Below are positions 1,370 through 52,933 of a stretch of DNA of 64,000 nucleotides, piece by piece; the first letter of the stretch is position 1, and each line of letters starts with the position of its first letter. The translations under genes and the position numbers were made by a program. The notes beneath the pieces were generated by a model, which saw only the letters and a program-made list of their open reading frames with translations, did not search any database and had not been told where the DNA came from. This stretch comes from a virus: positions 64,001-128,000 of the IMG/VR virus record IMGVR_UViG_3300017605_001304; one strand, 5' to 3'.

Positions 1370-2527
1370 TCACGGGTTGAGCGAGATGGTCGGAGCGGTC
1401 ATGGTGATCGACGTGTCGGACGAGATGGTCATCGCGCCGGTGCAGTGCATGTTGATCTGGCCGACGGCTTCGAGAACGATCTGGCCGTTGCCGGCGTGGA
1501 TGTTGATCGCAGCGCCGGCTGCGGCGGCCGAGGTCTCGATCAGGATCTCGCTGGTCTGCGCGGAGCAAGCGACGCGGTAAACCGTGGAGCCGGTGCCCGC
1601 CTGCACGATCACGTAATCGGCCGCCTTGCCGATGATCCCGTTCGAGGCGCTCGTGATCAGGGAGAAGTTGTCGTTGTTGTCCTGCAGCACGAGCTGGACG
1701 TTCTTCTTCGTGTTGACGCGGATCTCGGACACGGTGCCCGAGCCCTTGTCGTTGATGCTGATCACGCCGCCGCCGGTCGACTGCAGCCGGATCTCCGGCT
1801 TGCTCGTGAGGTCGCTCATCGAGAAGGAGTGGCCGCCGTGCGTCACCGACTTCATGGATGGGTCGGCCGTGTCGTCGCTGTAGGTCGTGCGGTGGCCCGA
1901 GACGCTCGTCAGCACGAGCTTGGTCGGCGCCACGTCCCAGAAGGTCAGGTTGTGGCCGGCGCCGCTCTGCAGCTCGAAGCGCTTGCGCGAGGCGTGGTCG
2001 TCTTGGGTCAAGACGTGGAGCTGAGAGGCGAGGACGACGTCGGGCGTCGACGGGCTGTCGTCCAGGAGCAGAAACCGCCCACCCGGGGTGGCGAGCTCGT
2101 GCACCTGGGTCGCGCCCAGGATCGTCTGAGACGCGTTCGAGCCCGGGAAGGCGTTCGTGCCGAGCCCGTTGTTGCTGGCGCTGTCGGCGGCCCGGCCGCG
2201 GACCTCCACGGGGCTCTCCGTCTGCCGGTAGACCGTCCCCAGGCAGATCGGCTTGGACGGGTCCCCGTGGAAGAAGCCGACGACGACCTGGGCGCCCACC
2301 TGGGGCACCCAGTAGGCCCCGGAGCCCGGGGCCCCGCCGAAGCTCACGTACGGCGCCCAGGGCAGGCTCTCGGTCGGCTCCTGGTTCTTGTCCTCGTGGT
2401 GGACCTGAAAGACCCGGATCTTGACCCGCCCCAGGCGCTCGGGGTCCTGGATGTCCTCGACGGTGCCGAAAAAGAGCCCCGTCCAGATGTGCCGGGTGCC
2501 GGAGACCTCTTCGTCGAGCGTGCCCAT
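1370..2527 (-). CDS. Baseplate central spike, gp5/VgrG/GpV-like (OB-fold plus beta-repeat, no lysozyme domain)
   Basis: GTVEDIQDPERLGRVKIRV...LPWA...VPQVGAQVVVGFFHGDPSKPICLG OB-fold motif; S-G-H beta repeats; TITMTAPTISLN C-terminus. Confidence 0.9.
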   Translation of the reverse strand: MGTLDEEVSGTRHIWTGLFFGTVEDIQDPERLGRVKIRVFQVHHEDKNQEPTESLPWAPYVSFGGAPGSGAYWVPQVGAQVVVGFFHGDPSKPICLGTVYRQTESPVEVRGRAADSASNNGLGTNAFPGSNASQTILGATQVHELATPGGRFLLLDDSPSTPDVVLASQLHVLTQDDHASRKRFELQSGAGHNLTFWDVAPTKLVLTSVSGHRTTYSDDTADPSMKSVTHGGHSFSMSDLTSKPEIRLQSTGGGVISINDKGSGTVSEIRVNTKKNVQLVLQDNNDNFSLITSASNGIIGKAADYVIVQAGTGSTVYRVACSAQTSEILIETSAAAAGAAINIHAGNGQIVLEAVGQINMHCTGAMTISSDTSITMTAPTISLNP

Positions 2528-2576
2528 GGGGCTCCTGGTGCGCTTAGGGCGCGGAGAGATTTCTGGAAAATGCCTG

Positions 2577-2604
2577 TTGACCAGACCTGTAATACAGGTA
2601 TCTT
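2577..2604 (+). promoter_or_regulatory. Sigma70-like promoter with palindromic operator in the spacer
   Basis: TTGACC-N16-TATCTT containing ACCTGT-AAT-ACAGGT (2585-2599); near-identical to 52082-52109; upstream of a plus-strand gene island. Confidence 0.75.
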
Positions 2605-2649
2605 CGGGGGCGTTGACGAGGACGACCTGAGCAACCCGAGGAGAGAGCC

Positions 2650-3108
2650 ATGCGAATCGCGATGTCCAAGGCCCAGCAGCTCTGCGATCAGATGCGGGAC
2701 GAGCTGAACGCCGGGATCGAGTTCAACAAGCGGATGTTCGTCGTCCCGATGGCCAACGACGACAACGGGCGCTTCAGCCATGTCGAAGTCCGCTACACCA
2801 AGGTGCTGTGCTCCGGCTCGATCTCCGACGTGTCGCGCTGGATCGGTGGCTTCCGCGCTGGCCTCGTCTTCTCCGGCGCGGCTCCGGTTGAGGTCCCTGC
2901 GCAGCGCGTCTGCTGGATCTTCGAGTGGGAAGGCGGCGGCTTCAACACGGTCATCGCGGCCACGAAGGACGAGGCGCTCACCCTCGCTGGCAAGATCAGC
3001 TCCACGCTCGTCCCGAACGTCGACTCGCTCCGCCCCCACAAGTCCGAGCCCGGCGACAAGTGGGGCCGCGACGTCATCGAGATCCGCTACTCCGGCATGT
3101 GCGACTGA
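2650..3108 (+). CDS. Hypothetical protein (first gene of plus-strand island 1)
   Basis: GAGGAG SD; GC3-biased codons. Confidence 0.7.
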   Translation: MRIAMSKAQQLCDQMRDELNAGIEFNKRMFVVPMANDDNGRFSHVEVRYTKVLCSGSISDVSRWIGGFRAGLVFSGAAPVEVPAQRVCWIFEWEGGGFNTVIAATKDEALTLAGKISSTLVPNVDSLRPHKSEPGDKWGRDVIEIRYSGMCD

Positions 3109-3120
3109 GGAGAAACGACC

Positions 3121-3339
3121 ATGCACCAGACGCAAAACTGGCACACGAAGATCAAGGTCATGCGCGCGACCTCGACCCGCGCCATCAACAAGGCCATCGT
3201 CGAGCTCCGCGCCGAGAGCAAGCGGCTGTGGTCGCTGTACGAGGCCGAGACGGACGCGCTGGTGAAGCACCGGACGCAGCAGAAGTTCTGCGCGCTGGAC
3301 AAGGCGATCAACATGCTCGAAACCGCGAAGGGAGTCTGA
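3121..3339 (+). CDS. Hypothetical helical protein
   Basis: GAGGAG SD; compact packing. Confidence 0.7.
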   Translation: MHQTQNWHTKIKVMRATSTRAINKAIVELRAESKRLWSLYEAETDALVKHRTQQKFCALDKAINMLETAKGV

Positions 3340-3341
3340 CC

Positions 3342-3737
3342 ATGAACACGACGAAGCTGAGCACGTTCTGCCTTCAGGTCTTCCACAACAAGAACGCCTT
3401 CGGCCCGACCCGCGACCTGCCGCCCGAGTTCGTGTGGGCCGCGTGCGTGACGATCGACGCGCCCGTCGGCATCGATCCCGCCGAGCTCTGTGAGATCGCC
3501 TACGCCGCGACGAACTCGGTCGATCACCCGTGGTTCGACCTGCCGGAGTCCGAGAAGGAACGCATCAAGCAGCCGGTGAACGGCACCTGCGTCATCGACG
3601 TACACGCCGTGAGGCCGACGCCGATCCGCTCGACCAGCGTCGGCGACCGCATCAAGATCACTGGCCGCAACGCTCTCTCGCGTCAGGTGTGGGAGGTCGC
3701 GACCTGCGGCTTCGAGCGCGTCCAGGAGAGGAGCTGA
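3342..3737 (+). CDS. Hypothetical protein with RSTSVGD motif (YodL-like small phage domain)
   Basis: YAATN...RSTSVGDRI...WEVATCGF; ATG within a TGACCATG junction. Confidence 0.6.
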   Translation: MNTTKLSTFCLQVFHNKNAFGPTRDLPPEFVWAACVTIDAPVGIDPAELCEIAYAATNSVDHPWFDLPESEKERIKQPVNGTCVIDVHAVRPTPIRSTSVGDRIKITGRNALSRQVWEVATCGFERVQERS

Positions 3738-3739
3738 CC

Positions 3740-3973
3740 GTGGCGAAGAGGAAGTCTCTGGAGGAGAGGTCGGCAGAGCTCCGGGCCAAGAACAAGATTG
3801 GCGAGGACGCGCTCGAACTGCTCGCCGCGACTCTCGGAATCACCGAAGACGAGTTCAAGCGCGACGAGGAGGACCGCCCGCTCCGCCTCATGTGCAGCGG
3901 CCGCTACGTCCACGTGCGCGACGATGTCGTCGCGCTCATCATCGAGAAGTTGAACGCCAAGAAGGGGAGCTGA
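3740..3973 (+). CDS. Hypothetical protein
   Basis: GTG start in GAGCTGACCGTG junction. Confidence 0.65.
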   Translation: MAKRKSLEERSAELRAKNKIGEDALELLAATLGITEDEFKRDEEDRPLRLMCSGRYVHVRDDVVALIIEKLNAKKGS

Positions 3974-3975
3974 CC

Positions 3976-4200
3976 ATGGACATCACCATCCCGATCCGCA
4001 CGGTGGAGATGCGCGTCCGTCCCTGCTGGGCTGACGAGGGGCCTGAAGGGTGGCAAGCGAGCTGGATCATCGTCACGCGGCCCTACGACGGTAGCATCGC
4101 CTACAAAGGCCGCGTCGCTCTGACCCCGGAAGCCGCCGAGGCCAACGCGCGAACGTGGTTGAAGTCCCACGCGAGCGAGTACGTCGAGCAGGAGAGCTGA
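3976..4200 (+). CDS. Hypothetical protein
   Basis: ATG start in GAGCTGACCATG junction. Confidence 0.65.
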   Translation: MDITIPIRTVEMRVRPCWADEGPEGWQASWIIVTRPYDGSIAYKGRVALTPEAAEANARTWLKSHASEYVEQES

Positions 4201-4202
4201 CC

Positions 4203-4430
4203 ATGGCCCACGAGAACACGTCTCCCCAGTGGCGAACGCGGGACACCCGCCTGCCGGACTCGCTCCATCGAGCGATCGAGAAGTACGGCGAAAGCTGCTA
4301 CGACCCGATGGACTGCTCCTACGTGCGACAGGCCGAGAAGGAGAAGACCCAGGCCCGCGGCGAGCTCGAAGCCGCGATCGTGCAGTACGTCGAGGCGAGG
4401 ATCACGCAGGCCCTAGCGTGGAGGAGCTGA
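4203..4430 (+). CDS. Hypothetical protein
   Basis: ATG start in GAGCTGACCATG junction. Confidence 0.65.
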   Translation: MAHENTSPQWRTRDTRLPDSLHRAIEKYGESCYDPMDCSYVRQAEKEKTQARGELEAAIVQYVEARITQALAWRS

Positions 4431-4432
4431 CC

Positions 4433-4675
4433 GTGCGGACCTCGAAAGGCGCGGCGCACCGGCTGCTCGATCAGTTCCGAGCGACCGTGCTCGGGATCCT
4501 GGGACCCGACTACTCGGTCCACCTGAAGTTCAAGGACGTTGGCAAGAGGGTGCTGTTCGACCACTTCATGGTCTGCGATCGCGCCGCGCCGGAGGCGATC
4601 TTCCGCGGCAACGCGGTGGAGGTAGCCGCGTTCATCCGCGGCGTGGGGTACGCGAAGGCCAAGGGCCAACTATGA
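4433..4675 (+). CDS. Hypothetical protein
   Basis: GTG start in GAGCTGACCGTG junction. Confidence 0.65.
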   Translation: MRTSKGAAHRLLDQFRATVLGILGPDYSVHLKFKDVGKRVLFDHFMVCDRAAPEAIFRGNAVEVAAFIRGVGYAKAKGQL

Positions 4676-4902
4676 CCATCGTGAAGAAGGTTCGCTGCGG
4701 CACCTGCCAAGGTCACGGCATCGTGATCATCGGCTACGTGACCGCGAAGACGCCGCCCCGTCCGTACTTCCGCTGCACCGGCTGCAAGACGGAGTGGACG
4801 GCCGGCAACAGCGGCGGGGAATACTTCGCCGCTGCCGTGAAGTACATGAAGAAGAACGGGATCCCGATTCCACCGACGACGCAGGAGGCGCACCCATGCT
4901 GA
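4672..4902 (+). CDS. Small Zn-ribbon protein
   Basis: CGTC...CTGC; ATGA overlap with the previous gene. Confidence 0.65.
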   Translation: MTIVKKVRCGTCQGHGIVIIGYVTAKTPPRPYFRCTGCKTEWTAGNSGGEYFAAAVKYMKKNGIPIPPTTQEAHPC

Positions 4903-5102
4903 AAGCACGCTACCGTGTCGTGATCATCGAGTCCGAGCGTGACTGGGGCCAGAAGGTCGACAGCTACAAGGACTTCAAGTCGCTCGCCGCGGCGAAGAAG
5001 TTCCAGCGTCGGTACAACGCGCAGAACTCGGCCGCCGTGACGCCCGACTGGTACATGGCCGCGCTCGATCCGGAGCTCGTCGACCTGTCGCAGGAGCGCT
5101 GA
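4896..5102 (+). CDS. Hypothetical protein
   Basis: AGGAGG SD; IIESERDWGQKVD...PDWY. Confidence 0.65.
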   Translation: MLKARYRVVIIESERDWGQKVDSYKDFKSLAAAKKFQRRYNAQNSAAVTPDWYMAALDPELVDLSQER

Positions 5103-5104
5103 AC

Positions 5105-5359
5105 ATGGCCTGGGTCATCGTCGCATGGAACGTCGAGAGCATCGTGAAGATGACGTGCGAGCCGCCGGCTCCGTACGATCGGCTGGACGACTTCCTGGCG
5201 TCGAAAGTCTTCGGCCCGTTCGAGAGCGAGTCGGAGTGTTCCGACTACGCCAAGCGGTACGTCCAGTTCACGCGGTACGAGTACAAGGAACTGAAGCCGC
5301 CGTCGTACGAAATCGCTAGTCGAGATGACCGAGGGCTCGACTCATGCGGTCGGGAGTGA
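5105..5359 (+). CDS. Hypothetical protein
   Basis: AGGAG SD; last gene of the island, converging on minus-strand genes. Confidence 0.6.
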   Translation: MAWVIVAWNVESIVKMTCEPPAPYDRLDDFLASKVFGPFESESECSDYAKRYVQFTRYEYKELKPPSYEIASRDDRGLDSCGRE

Positions 5360-5360
5360 T

Positions 5361-5672
5361 TCACTTCGTATCGCGGTCCTCGTAGACCTGCGTCTGGAAC
5401 GTGAAGCGGCAGCGGTTGCAGCGGACCCGCAAGTAGCGGCCGGGCAGGTGGCTGTGCGCCGGCTCCGTCCCCTCGTCGTCCGCGTCGAAGACTTCCATGT
5501 AGGTGACGCGCCACTTCATGGCCGCAGGCGAATCGAACCCACTCTCCTCCTTCCCGCAGCCCGGGCAGTGCGCCGGCCGGGTCCCGAACGGGAGCAACTT
5601 GTAGAGGTAGACCGGCATCGTCACGACGTCGCGCCCGAAGGTCTCCTTCTTCACCGGAGCTCCTCCTCTCAA
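5361..5672 (-). CDS. Zn-ribbon hypothetical protein
   Basis: CPGC...CNRC pairs. Confidence 0.55.
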   Translation of the reverse strand: MRGGAPVKKETFGRDVVTMPVYLYKLLPFGTRPAHCPGCGKEESGFDSPAAMKWRVTYMEVFDADDEGTEPAHSHLPGRYLRVRCNRCRFTFQTQVYEDRDTK

Positions 5673-6265
5673 CCGTCGGCCGTTCGAACACGACGGCGCA
5701 CCTCGACGGGCTTACGCCACTCTTCGAGGAACTCGCTCACCGTCTTGGTCAGGTCCGCGAGCGAGCCGTCGTTCTTGACTTCCATCACGCGCAGGCCCGC
5801 AGGCGCTGGCCAGTAGAAGCGCGAGTCGTTCTTGAACGAGCAGCCCTTGCGGTACATGCGGACGAGCACCGAGTGCTCCAGCCCGAAGTCCTCGATCAGG
5901 GCCGCCGCCTCTTCCGGGAACCCCGAGTCCGAGATGACGAACGTCTCCGATCCCCGGTCCATCCGGAACTTCTGGCTCACGTAGCGCCCGAAGAAGTCCT
6001 CGCCGAGCAGCGGCTTGATGAACTTCTCCGACAACGCGATGTACGCCTGCCGCGGCGTCACGCCCCAGAACCGCGCGTTGGGCGTGTCCTTGATGCCCTC
6101 GAACGCGTTGGACGGGACGCTCAGCTCGAAGACGCGGTGCGTGAGCTCCTTCAGGTACGTCGCGAACTTGTCGACGCGCGTGCGCGGCAGCTTCGCGGCG
6201 ACCATGGCCGCGAACGTATCCTTGCCACAGCCGGGCGGACCGTTGACCAGGACCAGGGTGCGCAT
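5669..6265 (-). CDS. Deoxynucleoside monophosphate kinase-like P-loop protein
   Basis: GPPGCGKDT Walker A; FATYLKE, TPRQ and VISDSGFPEE match phage dNMP kinase motifs. Confidence 0.8.
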   Translation of the reverse strand: MRTLVLVNGPPGCGKDTFAAMVAAKLPRTRVDKFATYLKELTHRVFELSVPSNAFEGIKDTPNARFWGVTPRQAYIALSEKFIKPLLGEDFFGRYVSQKFRMDRGSETFVISDSGFPEEAAALIEDFGLEHSVLVRMYRKGCSFKNDSRFYWPAPAGLRVMEVKNDGSLADLTKTVSEFLEEWRKPVEVRRRVRTADG

Positions 6266-7521
6266 CAGATCGCTCCTTCAGGGACCCTTCGCTTCTGGGA
6301 GTACGGAGCCCGCGGCTCGTACGCGAAGTTGAGCTGAATCGGAAGATCGACGATCGGACCGTTCTTGCGCGTCCAGAGTTGCATACGCTGCTTCGGACGT
6401 CCGCCTGCAGCCAGCTCCGCTCGCGCGTACTCATTATCAGATTCCGGCGTGCCCCCCATGAAGACCATATGCCCGTTCCAATCCCAGCCGAGGAACTGGT
6501 GGAAGTGGCCGATGAAGCAGTGATCCCACGGCTCCGGGATCGTGTCGAGCCAGCCGGCCATCGCGCGCGTGATGCCATAGAACGGCACGCCTGCGAAGCC
6601 CCCGCGGATCCCGAGGTCGCCGTGGATCAACAGGTTCTTATGGCCGAGCAACTCGTCGACGGCATACCAGCCAAGTGAGATGTTCCAGGTGATCTTGCAC
6701 TTTGGCTTGTTCGTCTGCACGAGGGAATCGGTCATCTGCTTCGCGCAGAGGTAGGAGACCGAGTCCCAGTTCGTGTCAGGATGTGAGTTGTCGTGCCGTG
6801 ACCCCGGCCGTCCGTGGTTACCACGGACGCACACGACGTGGATCTTCTCGAAGTACGCCGTCCAGTACATGAGCATCGCGGAGATGATCTTCGGCGCGTT
6901 GATCACGGCCTGCTCCATCACGGAGCTGTCGATCGAGAAGCCCTGGCGCGGGAAGATCGTCTCACCTTCCACGATGTCGCCGCCGAGGTAGACGCGCAGC
7001 TCTTTGATGCCACGCATCTTGTGGTGGACCTGACAGCACGACGCGACCTTGCGCGCGTACTCCATCAGGCGGCCTTGTGCGATCTCGGTCGAGTAGGAAG
7101 CGGTCGTCTTGCCGAGCTGCACATCGGTCACGTGAGCGAGCGCCACGACCTCTTCTCGCTCCGTCGCGTCGAAGCGGATCGGAGGCGGAAGTTCGATCTT
7201 GCCGTCCCAGTTCTGCAGGATGTCCTTCGCGGTAGCGAGGACGATGTCTTGCAGGCCGCCGCCTACACGAGCCTTTTGCCGCAGCGTCCGATTCTCTTTA
7301 CGGAGGAGCTCCAGCTCGGCCGGGATCTCGTGTCGCTGCTGGGTGGCGGCGCGCTTGGCGCCTTCCCGGGCACTCTGCAAGCTCCGCTTGAGCTCCTTGA
7401 GCTGCTTCTGCAGGAGCCGGACCTTCTCTCCCCACTCGTGCCGTGTCCGGGTCCGCCACTCCCGCGCGGCGTGGACCGACCTCATGAGCTCGTTATGTGT
7501 CATTTGAGCAAGTGCTGGCAT
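6265..7521 (-). CDS. Calcineurin-like metallophosphoesterase with N-terminal coiled coil
   Basis: TDVQLG, GDIVEG, GNHGR, HGD and GHFH motifs; start placed at the ATG with an AAGGAG SD. Confidence 0.85.
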   Translation of the reverse strand: MPALAQMTHNELMRSVHAAREWRTRTRHEWGEKVRLLQKQLKELKRSLQSAREGAKRAATQQRHEIPAELELLRKENRTLRQKARVGGGLQDIVLATAKDILQNWDGKIELPPPIRFDATEREEVVALAHVTDVQLGKTTASYSTEIAQGRLMEYARKVASCCQVHHKMRGIKELRVYLGGDIVEGETIFPRQGFSIDSSVMEQAVINAPKIISAMLMYWTAYFEKIHVVCVRGNHGRPGSRHDNSHPDTNWDSVSYLCAKQMTDSLVQTNKPKCKITWNISLGWYAVDELLGHKNLLIHGDLGIRGGFAGVPFYGITRAMAGWLDTIPEPWDHCFIGHFHQFLGWDWNGHMVFMGGTPESDNEYARAELAAGGRPKQRMQLWTRKNGPIVDLPIQLNFAYEPRAPYSQKRRVPEGAI

Positions 7522-11330: not shown

Positions 11331-11885
11331 GGGCGTGAGCCCGCGCCGCGTGAGGATGCCGTCCCGAACGAGCGTCGCGGTCGGCGGGGTCGAGTTGATC
11401 TCGTCCAAGGACAGCGTGGCCGTCGCGTGCATCGGCAGGATGTCCGAGACGAACTCATTGGCGCCGGGCTGACCGACGTCGCGCTCGAAGGCCCAAGGCC
11501 CGTCGAAGACGATGCTCACCGACTTCACGATACACAGCGACTGCAGCGTGTTACCGAAGAAGAGGCGCGTCAGCGGCGGGAAGCCCGTCGCGTTGTCCGG
11601 ATAGACCAACGCCTCCAGCCAGTCCGCCTTGCGCCTCACGTCGTCGAAGGCGTTCCCGTTGTCCCCCGCGTCCACGGACGCGAAGAAGCGCATCGTGAAC
11701 GCGATGTTGCGCGGGCTCGACGCACGGTACGCACGGTACGGCTCGCCACGCCCGACGACTTCTGTGGAACCCCACTCCGCCGACTTCGAGATCGTCAGCG
11801 TGTCCGGGATCATCTGGAAGTGCAGGCGCTCGGAAGGCTTCGCATCCAAGAACAGGTAGGCAAGATCAAATACCGCGACGGCCAT
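11322..11885 (-). CDS. Tail tube initiator / tube-fold baseplate protein
   Basis: FQMIPDTLTISKSAEW...VGRGEP...PPL...CIVKSVSI...LPMHA; directly after the tape measure gene. Confidence 0.7.
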   Translation of the reverse strand: MAVAVFDLAYLFLDAKPSERLHFQMIPDTLTISKSAEWGSTEVVGRGEPYRAYRASSPRNIAFTMRFFASVDAGDNGNAFDDVRRKADWLEALVYPDNATGFPPLTRLFFGNTLQSLCIVKSVSIVFDGPWAFERDVGQPGANEFVSDILPMHATATLSLDEINSTPPTATLVRDGILTRRGLTPSP

Positions 11886-11887
11886 GG

Positions 11888-13861
11888 TTAGCTCCGGTGA
11901 GACAGCATCCGCTGGACGTCAGGCAACATGCCGGGCGAAGGTGCCATCGGCATGTTCGAGCGCGGCTGCAAGTTCTGGACGAGGTATGCGCCCAGCCACT
12001 TGATCGCCGCCACAACCTCTTCCTGCGTGACGTGCCCGATCAGACTCGGGATCTTTTCGAGCGGCAGGACCGCTTCGGGCCGTCCCGCTTCCGCGATCGG
12101 AACGAGGGAACCGCCCGGGATCGGCTGGACGATGCCGCCCGCGGCCATCCCCTTCTTGAGGGCGCCCGGGAAGGCGCCTTCGAGGGCGTCGAAGTCCCCC
12201 TCCTGGACCTCGCCCCACCGCAGCAGCTTGCCGGCCTTCAGCTTGTCGGCGAGCACATGCAAACGCGCTTCATCTGCGAACGCAGCCTTGAGAGCCGTGT
12301 AGTCGATGCCGGCGTGGCTCTTGGACCACGCGTCCGCATCCTGGAGCGTCGCCATCCCGTGCTGGAGGGCGTCTTCCAGAGACTTGAATTCGTCGAGCTC
12401 GCGGCGGGCTTGAATCTCGTGGACCGCGCGGAGCGCCATGCCGCGCGAGGCTTTGCGCTCGTTCTCTTCCTCGCCGCTGATGGACTTCCAAATACCCTCA
12501 ATCCGGTCCATCACCGATAGCAGCCCCTTGAACTTCCCGAGCCACTGATCCACCATCGGGCTTACTTTTTCGTTCAGCAGCGCGGAGGTGAAGGCGATGG
12601 CGCCGTTCTTCAGCTTGTCTAGATTCGGCTGGATCTGCAGGAAGAGCTGCGCGGTCTTGTCGTCGAAGTATTTCGTGAGCGCGTCGGTCTGCTTCTCCCA
12701 CGCCTCGCGAGTATCGCCGGCCGCTCCGGCCATCTTCTTGGCAATGGCGTCCACGTTGGCACCGGCGACGTCGACGACGTTGCGCAGGACCGCCAGCGTG
12801 CCGGGGTCGATGCCGTAGACCTGCGCCCACATCTCGGACATGGCGCCCGCACGGTCGCGCGGCACCTGCTCGATCATGCGCAGGAAGTCCTCGAAGACCT
12901 GCTTCGTCTGGCCGGTGCGCAGCATGTTCTGCAGGTCGGCCACCTGCTTGCCGCCGCTGCGGGCCACCTGCGCCGCGAGGATCATCCCACGACTCGACGT
13001 CTGGTTCAGCATCTCGACGAAGAGCTGCATCGCCTTCTGGCCACTTGCACCGAGGTGCTTCATGGCCGATTCTGCGGTCGCCAGCCCCGCCATCGAGGCT
13101 TCCTGGTACGCCTTGGGCGTCTCGTTCAGGAGCTTCGCGACTTCGGGGTTGCTCGGATCGATCGCAGCGAAGACGTCCTCGGGCTTCACGTTGAACGTGC
13201 TTACGAGCTTGGCCGCCAAGCCATCGAAGGCTTCGAAGTTGTTCGTGAATCCGGGAATACGGCTCAACTGGTAATTGAACTGCGAGGCCGCCTCGACGCT
13301 CACGCCCAGGACCTTGGCGGCCCGGCCCGAACTCAGCACGAACTTGTCGTACAGCTCGACCGGGATCTTCATCTGCGAGGCGGTCTTCTCCAGCTTGAAC
13401 GCCTCTTCGGTCGTCAGGCCGAAGTTCATCGCAAGGCCGACGACCTCGTCGGAGAGCTGCTTCGTGCTGAGCGTCAGGTCGTCGTTGACGTAGCGGACCT
13501 TGAGCAGGTTGTCGTGGTAGGCGACCGTGCCGGAGATGAGGCTGCTGAAGAAGCTGACCGCCTTCTCCAGGAACAGGTACGCCTCGCCGATCACCGTCAA
13601 CGGAACCAGGAGGCCGCTCAGACTCGAACTCACCGTGCCCAACGATCCCGTGAGCGCGTTCGCCGCCAGGGACGACTTCTTCGAGATGCTGTCCGCAGCC
13701 TTGCCGGCCTCTTCCAGGGCGAGGACCGCCTTGGCCTTCGCGCCAATGGCCGCCTCGCTGAGCGCCTTCGTGTCCTTGACCGCGCGCTCGGAGCCGTGCT
13801 GGCTGTTGTCGTACTGGATGCGGTAGACGAAGTTGAACTGGTTCGAGTTGCCGTTAGCCAT
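11888..13861 (-). CDS. Tape measure protein
   Basis: Long Ala/Leu/Gln helical protein; C-terminal MAAGGIV...AEAGRPEAVLPL; canonical position. Confidence 0.8.
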   Translation of the reverse strand: MANGNSNQFNFVYRIQYDNSQHGSERAVKDTKALSEAAIGAKAKAVLALEEAGKAADSISKKSSLAANALTGSLGTVSSSLSGLLVPLTVIGEAYLFLEKAVSFFSSLISGTVAYHDNLLKVRYVNDDLTLSTKQLSDEVVGLAMNFGLTTEEAFKLEKTASQMKIPVELYDKFVLSSGRAAKVLGVSVEAASQFNYQLSRIPGFTNNFEAFDGLAAKLVSTFNVKPEDVFAAIDPSNPEVAKLLNETPKAYQEASMAGLATAESAMKHLGASGQKAMQLFVEMLNQTSSRGMILAAQVARSGGKQVADLQNMLRTGQTKQVFEDFLRMIEQVPRDRAGAMSEMWAQVYGIDPGTLAVLRNVVDVAGANVDAIAKKMAGAAGDTREAWEKQTDALTKYFDDKTAQLFLQIQPNLDKLKNGAIAFTSALLNEKVSPMVDQWLGKFKGLLSVMDRIEGIWKSISGEEENERKASRGMALRAVHEIQARRELDEFKSLEDALQHGMATLQDADAWSKSHAGIDYTALKAAFADEARLHVLADKLKAGKLLRWGEVQEGDFDALEGAFPGALKKGMAAGGIVQPIPGGSLVPIAEAGRPEAVLPLEKIPSLIGHVTQEEVVAAIKWLGAYLVQNLQPRSNMPMAPSPGMLPDVQRMLSHRS

Positions 13862-52081: not shown

Positions 52082-52109
52082 TTGACACGACCTGTATTAC
52101 AGGTATGCT
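52082..52109 (+). promoter_or_regulatory. Sigma70-like promoter with palindromic operator
   Basis: TTGACA-N16-TATGCT containing ACCTGT-ATT-ACAGGT (52090-52104). Confidence 0.8.
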
Positions 52110-52144: not shown

Positions 52145-52303
52145 ATGTACCGATTCGCGCTGACCTTCGGGGCCCTGCTGATCCTGTCCGGGCTGTGCAG
52201 CCTGCTGATCTTCGGGGACTTCACCTGGGCCGACGCCGGGCTCGCGCTCACGGGCGCGCTGCTGGGTCGTCACTTCGGCCGCCGTGCAGGGCGCTTCTCG
52301 TGA
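52145..52303 (+). CDS. Small membrane protein (absent from the ORF track)
   Basis: GAGGAG SD; MYRFALTFGALLILSGLCSLLIFG... Confidence 0.55.
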   Translation: MYRFALTFGALLILSGLCSLLIFGDFTWADAGLALTGALLGRHFGRRAGRFS

Positions 52304-52533: not shown

Positions 52534-52667
52534 AGAAGGAGATGAGCATGGATCGCGTCTTCCGTTTCTATCGGGCACATCCTCGGGCAACGCTGGTCCT
52601 CGCAGCCGCGGCGGACCTCTGCGTCTTGGCCGGTCTCGGACTGATCGTCCGGGCGATTTGGAGCTGA
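52530..52667 (+). CDS. Small membrane protein
   Basis: ATGA overlap; one hydrophobic segment. Confidence 0.5.
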   Translation: MKKEMSMDRVFRFYRAHPRATLVLAAAADLCVLAGLGLIVRAIWS

Positions 52668-52669
52668 CC

Positions 52670-52933
52670 GTGCAGTTCTACATCACCCAACCTGACGGCA
52701 CGACGCGGACGACCGAGATCCCAGACGAGGTCGTGGTCGCTGCAACGTCGCTCCAGATGGATGGCAAGCAGGCCATCACCGACAAGAGCAAGTCGTCTTG
52801 GGCCGATCTGATGGGCGCTGTCACGAAGGCGCTGCTCGACGCGGAGGACCGCGGTCGGCAGAAGGGGCGCGAGGACGTGAAGGCCAAACTGGCCGAGCTC
52901 GTCGACCGGCTCCTCACGGGGACCCTGCCGTGA
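52670..52933 (+). CDS. Hypothetical protein
   Basis: GAGCTGACCGTG junction. Confidence 0.6.
   Translation: MQFYITQPDGTTRTTEIPDEVVVAATSLQMDGKQAITDKSKSSWADLMGAVTKALLDAEDRGRQKGREDVKAKLAELVDRLLTGTLP

Follow-up and report, generated by a model that had tools for sequence, protein, structure and literature searches.

We analyzed a 64,000-nucleotide (nt) stretch of viral DNA, referred to as the window, which represents bases 64001-128000 of a 149,155-bp IMG/VR virus record (IMGVR_UViG_3300017605_001304), and in it a 12-mer, GAGCTGACCRTG, that joins consecutive small genes in an island on the + strand. Each copy of the 12-mer packs a stop codon, the next start codon, and Shine-Dalgarno (SD) sequence into one compact unit. 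We think it rather likely that this unit is a consensus translational-coupling junction within one operon of real, unrelated genes, most of them ORFans. It is best read in this way because its elements are the modal choices of the genome and because a 14-mer form of the junction is found in unrelated viral contigs. The record is linear, about 70% complete by the IMG/VR estimate, and has a GC content of about 64%. The phage is uncultured and appears to be T4-like, our own support for the latter being the matches of the genes that flank the island.

Copies and anatomy of the junction

The 12-mer is present in five exact copies, at window positions 3731, 3967, 4194, 4424, and 52661, all on the + strand. 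The expected number is 0.06, and none of 100 dinucleotide-preserving shuffles reached five. The whole record contains the same five copies on its + strand and zero on its - strand. Every copy is a stop/start junction, in which TGA terminates an open reading frame (ORF) that shows coding periodicity and, 2 nt further on, RTG begins the next one. The last sense codon is AGC (Ser) in each case. These counts confirm a preliminary description of this DNA, which had reported four consecutive island junctions with an identical unit, an exact copy in a second island at 52661, and variant junctions at 3331-3344 (GGAGTCTGACCATG) and 5094-5107 (GAGCGCTGAACATG), and which had proposed the genome-wide count against background. 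Identity between the copies ends after 13-15 nt; of the adjoining 30 nt, 6-17 positions agree on the upstream side and 6-12 on the downstream side, with the higher upstream values falling in the purine-rich SD zone. Recombination between copies, if it occurs, would thus rest on very short homology. Three genes, encoding proteins of 77, 74, and 75 amino acids (aa), are each bracketed by exact copies at both ends.

Read in frame, the unit consists of xGG-AGC-TGA or xAG-AGC-TGA, then CC, then ATG or GTG. In the distant copy and in all but one of the four island copies, GGAG ends 6 nt ahead of the start codon. The exception is the copy at 4194, where the G before GAG is missing and a GGAG is found at 8 nt instead. 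Overall, GGAG or AGGAG lies 6-8 nt ahead of the island starts. We compared these elements to the preferences of the genome. SD-like sites precede most of its genes, with a spacing mode of 6-7 nt. Among 114 free starts (those with at least 5 nt of open upstream space), 61 have GGAG, and a spacing of 6 nt is the commonest (17, versus 10 each at spacings 5, 7, and 8). SD, stop, and start are indeed packed together as the preliminary description had it, with GGAG at the modal spacing of the genome. Of the 1079 AGN codons, 821 are AGC, and of the 218 stops, 164 are TGA. A cytosine occupies position -1 in 73 of the 114 free starts, a marked start-context preference of this phage, and in 9 of the 10 junctions with a 2-nt gap (+2 junctions) outside the island. 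The motif is the joint mode of four separate genome preferences, and its stereotyped sequence would arise because the modal option of each element has been joined.

The 14-mer GGAGCTGACCATGG matched at least 120 stretches in IMG/VR. We performed a frame test on 115 of the listed matches, those with at least 300 nt on either side. The ATG opens a frame of at least 60 codons in 90 of these 115 (versus 22 and 35 in the other frames), and the TGA closes such a frame in 57 (versus 14 and 49), the 49 representing the ATG frame itself, where the motif may be read in frame within a gene. Both stop and start bound frames of at least 60 codons in 52 of the 115 listed matches, which come from unrelated viral contigs. 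This reuse supports a convergence on what may be a generic solution of GC-rich phages.

From the observed anatomy and statistics we infer coupling, a single transcript, and selection behind the local uniformity. The last two sense codons (xGG/xAG AGC) would spell GGAG, the SD core for the next gene, at the preferred 6-nt spacing. TGA would terminate the gene, and ATG or GTG would start the next one after CC, the context that this genome favors ahead of a start. As the gaps span -7 to +2 nt, a ribosome terminating at TGA would still cover the next start, so that each gene would be translated in step with the preceding one. On a more speculative reading, TGA and the bases beside it could lengthen the pairing with the tail of the 16S rRNA. 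A single polycistronic transcript from the promoter-like site at 2577-2604 may carry all ten small genes of the island, and a co-regulated operon class may have settled on the same optimum by selection.

Such an arrangement resembles termination-reinitiation coupling (PMC6728339, PMC10666635): genes are co-directional and lie -8 to +10 nt apart, the SD sequence falls within the 15 nt that close the upstream gene, and there is no room between the genes for a promoter or terminator. PMC10666635 treats spacings of -8 to +10 nt as a predictor of termination-reinitiation and gives the final 15 nt of the upstream gene as sufficient for coupling. The gaps between the co-directional island genes are, in order, 12, 2, 2, 2, 2, 2, -4, -7, and 2 nt, placing eight of nine within this range, and an SD-like motif is found at working distance inside the closing ~15 nt of the upstream gene. 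Coupled pairs usually overlap as ATGA (-4) or TGATG (-1), whereas here the +2 form is used five times running, four times with the identical 12-mer. According to PMC10666635, three Escherichia coli gene pairs lost 5, 20, and 70% of their reinitiation efficiency to a 2-nt gap. Base pairing at the junctions is like that at other starts (mean unpaired probability 0.43, versus 0.40 for 80 control starts). Rfam gave 0 matches at E<=1 for window positions 2300-5900, and a consensus scan of the + strand found the head site and no other promoter-like or terminator-like site inside the island. A RegB-type nuclease (PF10715) had no match in the phage record, a negative that is uninformative as the control genomes likewise gave no match.

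If the unit is a coupling signal only, it represents a phage operon converging on one consensus joint, an unsurprising outcome that would be useful for annotating the mini-genes of GC-rich phages. The last residues of the small proteins (...Ser-stop) would in that case be dictated by the ribosome site of the next gene.

Kinship of the joined genes

Genes were called with a crude procedure based on codon log-odds, followed by start refinement using the SD site and the start codon, which yielded 218 proteins. Ten + strand genes were called in the island, at 2650-5359, between two blocks of - strand genes. The GC content at third codon positions is 0.82-0.95 for every island ORF, compared with a genome mean of 0.87, and the island genes thus look like real coding sequence that is at home in the phage. 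A foreign origin of the island by composition is ruled out by the same uniformity. Small size is not unusual in this genome, where mini-genes of 40-100 aa abound and 107 genes encode fewer than 100 aa.

We next consider how the joined genes are related to each other. At E<1e-3, all-against-all BLASTP of the 218 proteins detected 11 families of paralogues outside the island. The same comparison gave no match at E<=1 among the 10 island proteins and no second copy of any island gene in the genome, and Smith-Waterman alignment against 150 shuffles gave z<=2.5 for every within-island pair. Judged by sequence, the motif does join unrelated small ORFs, as had been claimed. A kinship between the 75-aa protein (4203-4430) and the 87-aa protein opened by the fifth junction (52670-52933) was set aside: their z of 4.3 is not significant over 55 pairs, and 7 of 16 residues are identical at positions 6-21 of both (E=0.005 as a single comparison). 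None of the ten island proteins attains a curated Pfam threshold.

Two island proteins have recognizable relatives. The 77-aa protein has a lone homologue, P0003, with 67% identity. P0003 keeps residues 8-72, and both termini differ, including the SD-bearing tail. This is consistent with a breakpoint close to the gene boundary, or else with a tail that adapted quickly to a different downstream gene. The 68-aa protein has relatives of 36-46% identity in 9 large phage records, among them Caulobacter phage Cr30, Xanthomonas phages BUDD and X1, and Vibrio, Synechococcus, Variovorax, and Streptomyces phages; it was the only match when seven island proteins were searched by tblastn against phage records. 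Its gene neighbors baseplate wedge genes in Cr30 and a topoisomerase in BUDD, at gaps of 11-241 nt. These different contexts indicate that it travels as a single gene, without a tight joint.

Searches for relatives that share the island gave little. Window positions 2600-5400 had zero blastn matches in phage records. With the dNMP kinase as query, IMG/VR returned one locus at 28% identity and no usable relative, and with the baseplate hub no relative. The 68-aa protein gave a 16-residue match only in IMG/VR, and no relative was confirmed in metagenome contigs plus IMG/VR with P0003 or an alignment of P0002 and P0003 as query. Two exact copies of the junction spaced 200-230 nt apart had 0 matches in IMG/VR. 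A search for sequencing runs covering window positions 2600-5700 listed neither a run nor an RNA data set.

Explanations for the local uniformity

Composition accounts for the motif in part. After start refinement and addition of a 39-codon ORF, the genome contains 206 same-strand junctions, of which the -4 overlap (38) and the -1 overlap (20) are the commonest and 16 have the +2 form. We calculated two nulls for an exact copy at a +2 junction. The strict null multiplies the frequency of GAG at -9..-7 (33 of 208 starts), the AGC share, the TGA share, and the frequency of CC (39 of 208 starts), giving 1.7% per +2 junction; the generous null uses GGAG at spacing 6 (17 of 61) and CC in 4 of the 10 outside +2 junctions, giving 6.4%. 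Five exact copies, four of them consecutive, were observed among the 16 +2 junctions. The preliminary description had named an explanation by composition alone as one of two refutations. This holds insofar as each element is modal and the 14-mer junction is found elsewhere, and fails for the four-copy run and the six +2 joints, which exceed expectation.

Several of these results weigh against a coupling consensus as the full account. The +2 form accounts for six of the nine island joints but for 10 of 197 outside the island (Fisher p=6e-6), where -4 and -1 overlaps are preferred. Under the strict null, 0.27 exact copies are expected in 16 (P=5e-6 for at least 5 of 16, P=1e-6 for at least 4 of 6 in the island), and under the generous null 1.0 (P=0.0025 and P=2e-4, respectively), values that are optimistic as the motif was picked after being seen. 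Other small-gene arrays of the same phage lack this design, and the optimum is thus not universal in the genome. The absence of paired copies from IMG/VR suggests that junction runs are no common convergent outcome. The run itself is statistically real.

A chance coincidence among few strongly constrained junction sequences is very improbable in our view. It could draw on the small number of designs that fit a 2-nt gap with an in-frame SD sequence, reflected in the roughly 6% per junction of the generous null, and on the selection of the motif after its sighting, but even this null leaves the low probabilities given above, and neighboring +2 junctions are more alike than non-neighbors (12.0 versus 8.0 of 21 positions, permutation p=6e-4). 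Neighboring -4 junctions also show an excess (9.7 versus 8.1 of 23 positions, p=0.009), and -1 junctions do not (p=0.53). Part of this likeness is due to tandem paralogues such as the family at genome 143031-144011, a cause that cannot be shown for the island. Past the window end, on the - strand, a run of -1 junctions reading CTGATGTTCC is located among tandem paralogues (genome 143539-144195), where the repeated junction results from duplication. Another 14-mer, GGAGCTTGAGCATG, is common to two adjacent +2 junctions at genome 140483 and 140683 (- strand, again past the window end), and local junction stereotypy thus extends beyond the island.

The island could likewise be the relic of a tandem duplication, with its 68-84-aa genes as hyper-diverged copies of one mini-gene in which only the translationally constrained junction was kept. 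Leaving aside the first gene, eight of the remaining nine encode proteins of 68-84 aa, paralogue arrays with repeated CTGATGTTCC joints exist in this very genome (143031-144011), and the likeness of adjacent -4 junctions points the same way. Similar lengths weigh little, however, given how common mini-genes are here, past the start codon only 6-12 of 30 nucleotide positions match, and the island proteins show none of the BLASTP or Smith-Waterman kinship that marks a paralogue array. We therefore regard a duplication origin as unlikely.

An equally doubtful alternative, put forward in the preliminary description, is that the junction doubles as boundary homology, so that exchange or slippage between copies would add or remove whole genes while SD, stop, and start are rebuilt; the run of identical junctions would then record serial cassette insertions. 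The copies are direct repeats bracketing three whole genes of 74-77 aa, and by sequence logic a crossover anywhere in the repeat would give a clean single-gene deletion with the joint intact. Both the clustering and the surplus of copies beyond what composition predicts are real, the genes between the repeats are ORFans unrelated to each other, and the 14-mer junction occurs in many viral contigs, so that matching microhomology partners exist. The conservation of residues 8-72 in P0003, with both ends different, would also fit. On the other hand, the island genes are single-copy in this genome, the composition is uniform with that of the phage and gives no sign of recent import, and the relatives of the 68-aa gene sit at other kinds of junction.

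Precedents for recombining boundary repeats exist in T4-type phages. Promoter-early stem-loops (PeSLs) are, according to Arbiol et al. 2010 (PMC2839356), repeated elements with ~100 bp of conservation that flank ORFans, recombine, and release mini-circles; PeSL cassettes of T4-type phages also feature in Comeau et al. 2014 (PMC4122927). Our island is similar in that it is a variable stretch of a T4-like phage, set between core genes, in which ORFans are bordered by repeated signals. The proposed outcome, in which single ORFans are cleanly cut out or put in, is likewise shared. PeSLs are, however, intergenic, ~100 bp long, and contain a promoter and a stem-loop, whereas the junction comprises 12-15 nt with a 2-nt gap and contains neither. 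Its 13-15 nt of identity are far below the ~100 bp of PeSL conservation described in PMC2839356. We rejected the junction as a PeSL cassette on these lengths together with the lack of an internal promoter-like site and of distinct pairing. An integron-type gene cassette was rejected as well, with 2 nt between genes and no junction structure; no search for an integrase was made.

It is improbable, too, that the 12-15-nt unit acts as a pared-down version of the T4 PeSL, lacking the promoter and combining a translation signal with homology for gene-precise excision and insertion. ORFans could in that case be slotted into or out of a running operon without polar effects, and serial insertions would have left the run of identical junctions around unrelated genes as their scar. 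PMC3029335 states that short conserved boundary sequences are not findable at most mosaic boundaries. Our junction is like the linker sequences treated there in that the same short sequence, in five exact copies, bounds unrelated genes and could serve general recombination. If the repeat also guides recombination, it would be a simple answer to the long-standing problem of how phages add or drop single ORFans in operons with expression intact.

Layout of the two islands

The features of both islands and of the flanking gene blocks are listed in Table 1. The 152-aa gene and the next gene are separated by a 12-nt gap that contains GGAG.

Table 1. Genes, junctions, and promoter-like elements in the window (window coordinates)
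Feature	Position	Strand	Details
Baseplate hub gene	1370-2527	-	- strand block; PF04717 at 7.5e-19; phrog_430
Promoter-like element, head of island 1	2577-2604	+	TTGACC, 16-nt spacer, TATCTT; 15-bp palindrome ACCTGTAATACAGGT (2585-2599) in spacer
First island gene, 152 aa	2650-3108	+	alternative start 2662; no family match, no phage tblastn match
72-aa ORFan	3121-3339	+	ends ...GGA GTC TGA
Variant junction GGAGTCTGACCATG	3331-3344	+	SD 7 nt before start
131-aa ORFan	3342-3737	+	sole match itself among 5.8 billion proteins
Exact junction GAGCTGACCGTG	3731-3742	+	AGC Ser codon, TGA stop, CC, GTG start
77-aa gene	3740-3973	+	one homologue, P0003
Exact junction GAGCTGACCATG	3967-3978	+	
74-aa ORFan	3976-4200	+	sole match itself in billion-scale protein library
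Exact junction GAGCTGACCATG	4194-4205	+	
75-aa ORFan	4203-4430	+	sole match itself among 1.84 billion representatives
Exact junction GAGCTGACCGTG	4424-4435	+	
80-aa gene	4433-4675	+	ATGA overlap (-4) with next gene
76-aa gene	4672-4902	+	overlapped 7 nt by next gene
68-aa gene	4896-5102	+	phrog_11243, E=8.7e-5; relatives in named phages
Variant junction GAGCGCTGAACATG	5094-5107	+	GGAG 8 nt before start
Last island gene, 84 aa	5105-5359	+	convergent with - strand gene 5361-5654
dNMP kinase	5669-6265	-	- strand block; phrog_139 at 5e-34
Exonuclease	6265-7503	-	- strand block; phrog_284
Same design with TAA stop, GGAGC-TAA-CC-ATGG	11882-11895	-	between 657-aa and 187-aa genes
Promoter-like element, head of island 2	52082-52109	+	TTGACA, 16-nt spacer, TATGCT; palindrome ACCTGTATTACAGGT
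39-codon hydrophobic mini-ORF	52548-52667	+	ends ...TGG AGC TGA; read by eye, missed by crude gene caller
Fifth exact junction GAGCTGACCGTG	52661-52672	+	
87-aa gene opened by fifth junction	52670-52933	+	

Near-identical elements head both islands, TTGACC-AG-ACCTGTAATACAGGT-ATCTT and TTGACA-CG-ACCTGTATTACAGGT-ATGCT, which places the two islands in one regulatory class and fits their common style of translation signal. The combination of promoter and palindrome resembles a PeSL- or operator-like layout, with the difference from PeSLs that it is found at island heads here and not between genes. Allowing up to 2 mismatches, the 15-bp palindrome ACCTGTAWTACAGGT has three sites in the window versus 0.00 expected and eight in the whole record, namely the two island heads and genome positions 3522, 39768, 41605, 52295, 52316, and 75101. 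Comparison with the gene table places the eight sites between called genes. The element is probably the binding site for a dimeric regulator of one gene class.

At the end of island 1, a distance of 1 nt separates the stop of the 84-aa gene from that of the convergent - strand gene (5357-5363), leaving no space for an intergenic terminator. The 76-aa protein contains two Cys pairs and has weak zinc-ribbon matches below Pfam thresholds. Island 2 contains two tiny hydrophobic ORFs, one of 52 codons (52145-52303) and the 39-codon ORF that ends in the fifth junction; both are likely to encode membrane mini-proteins.

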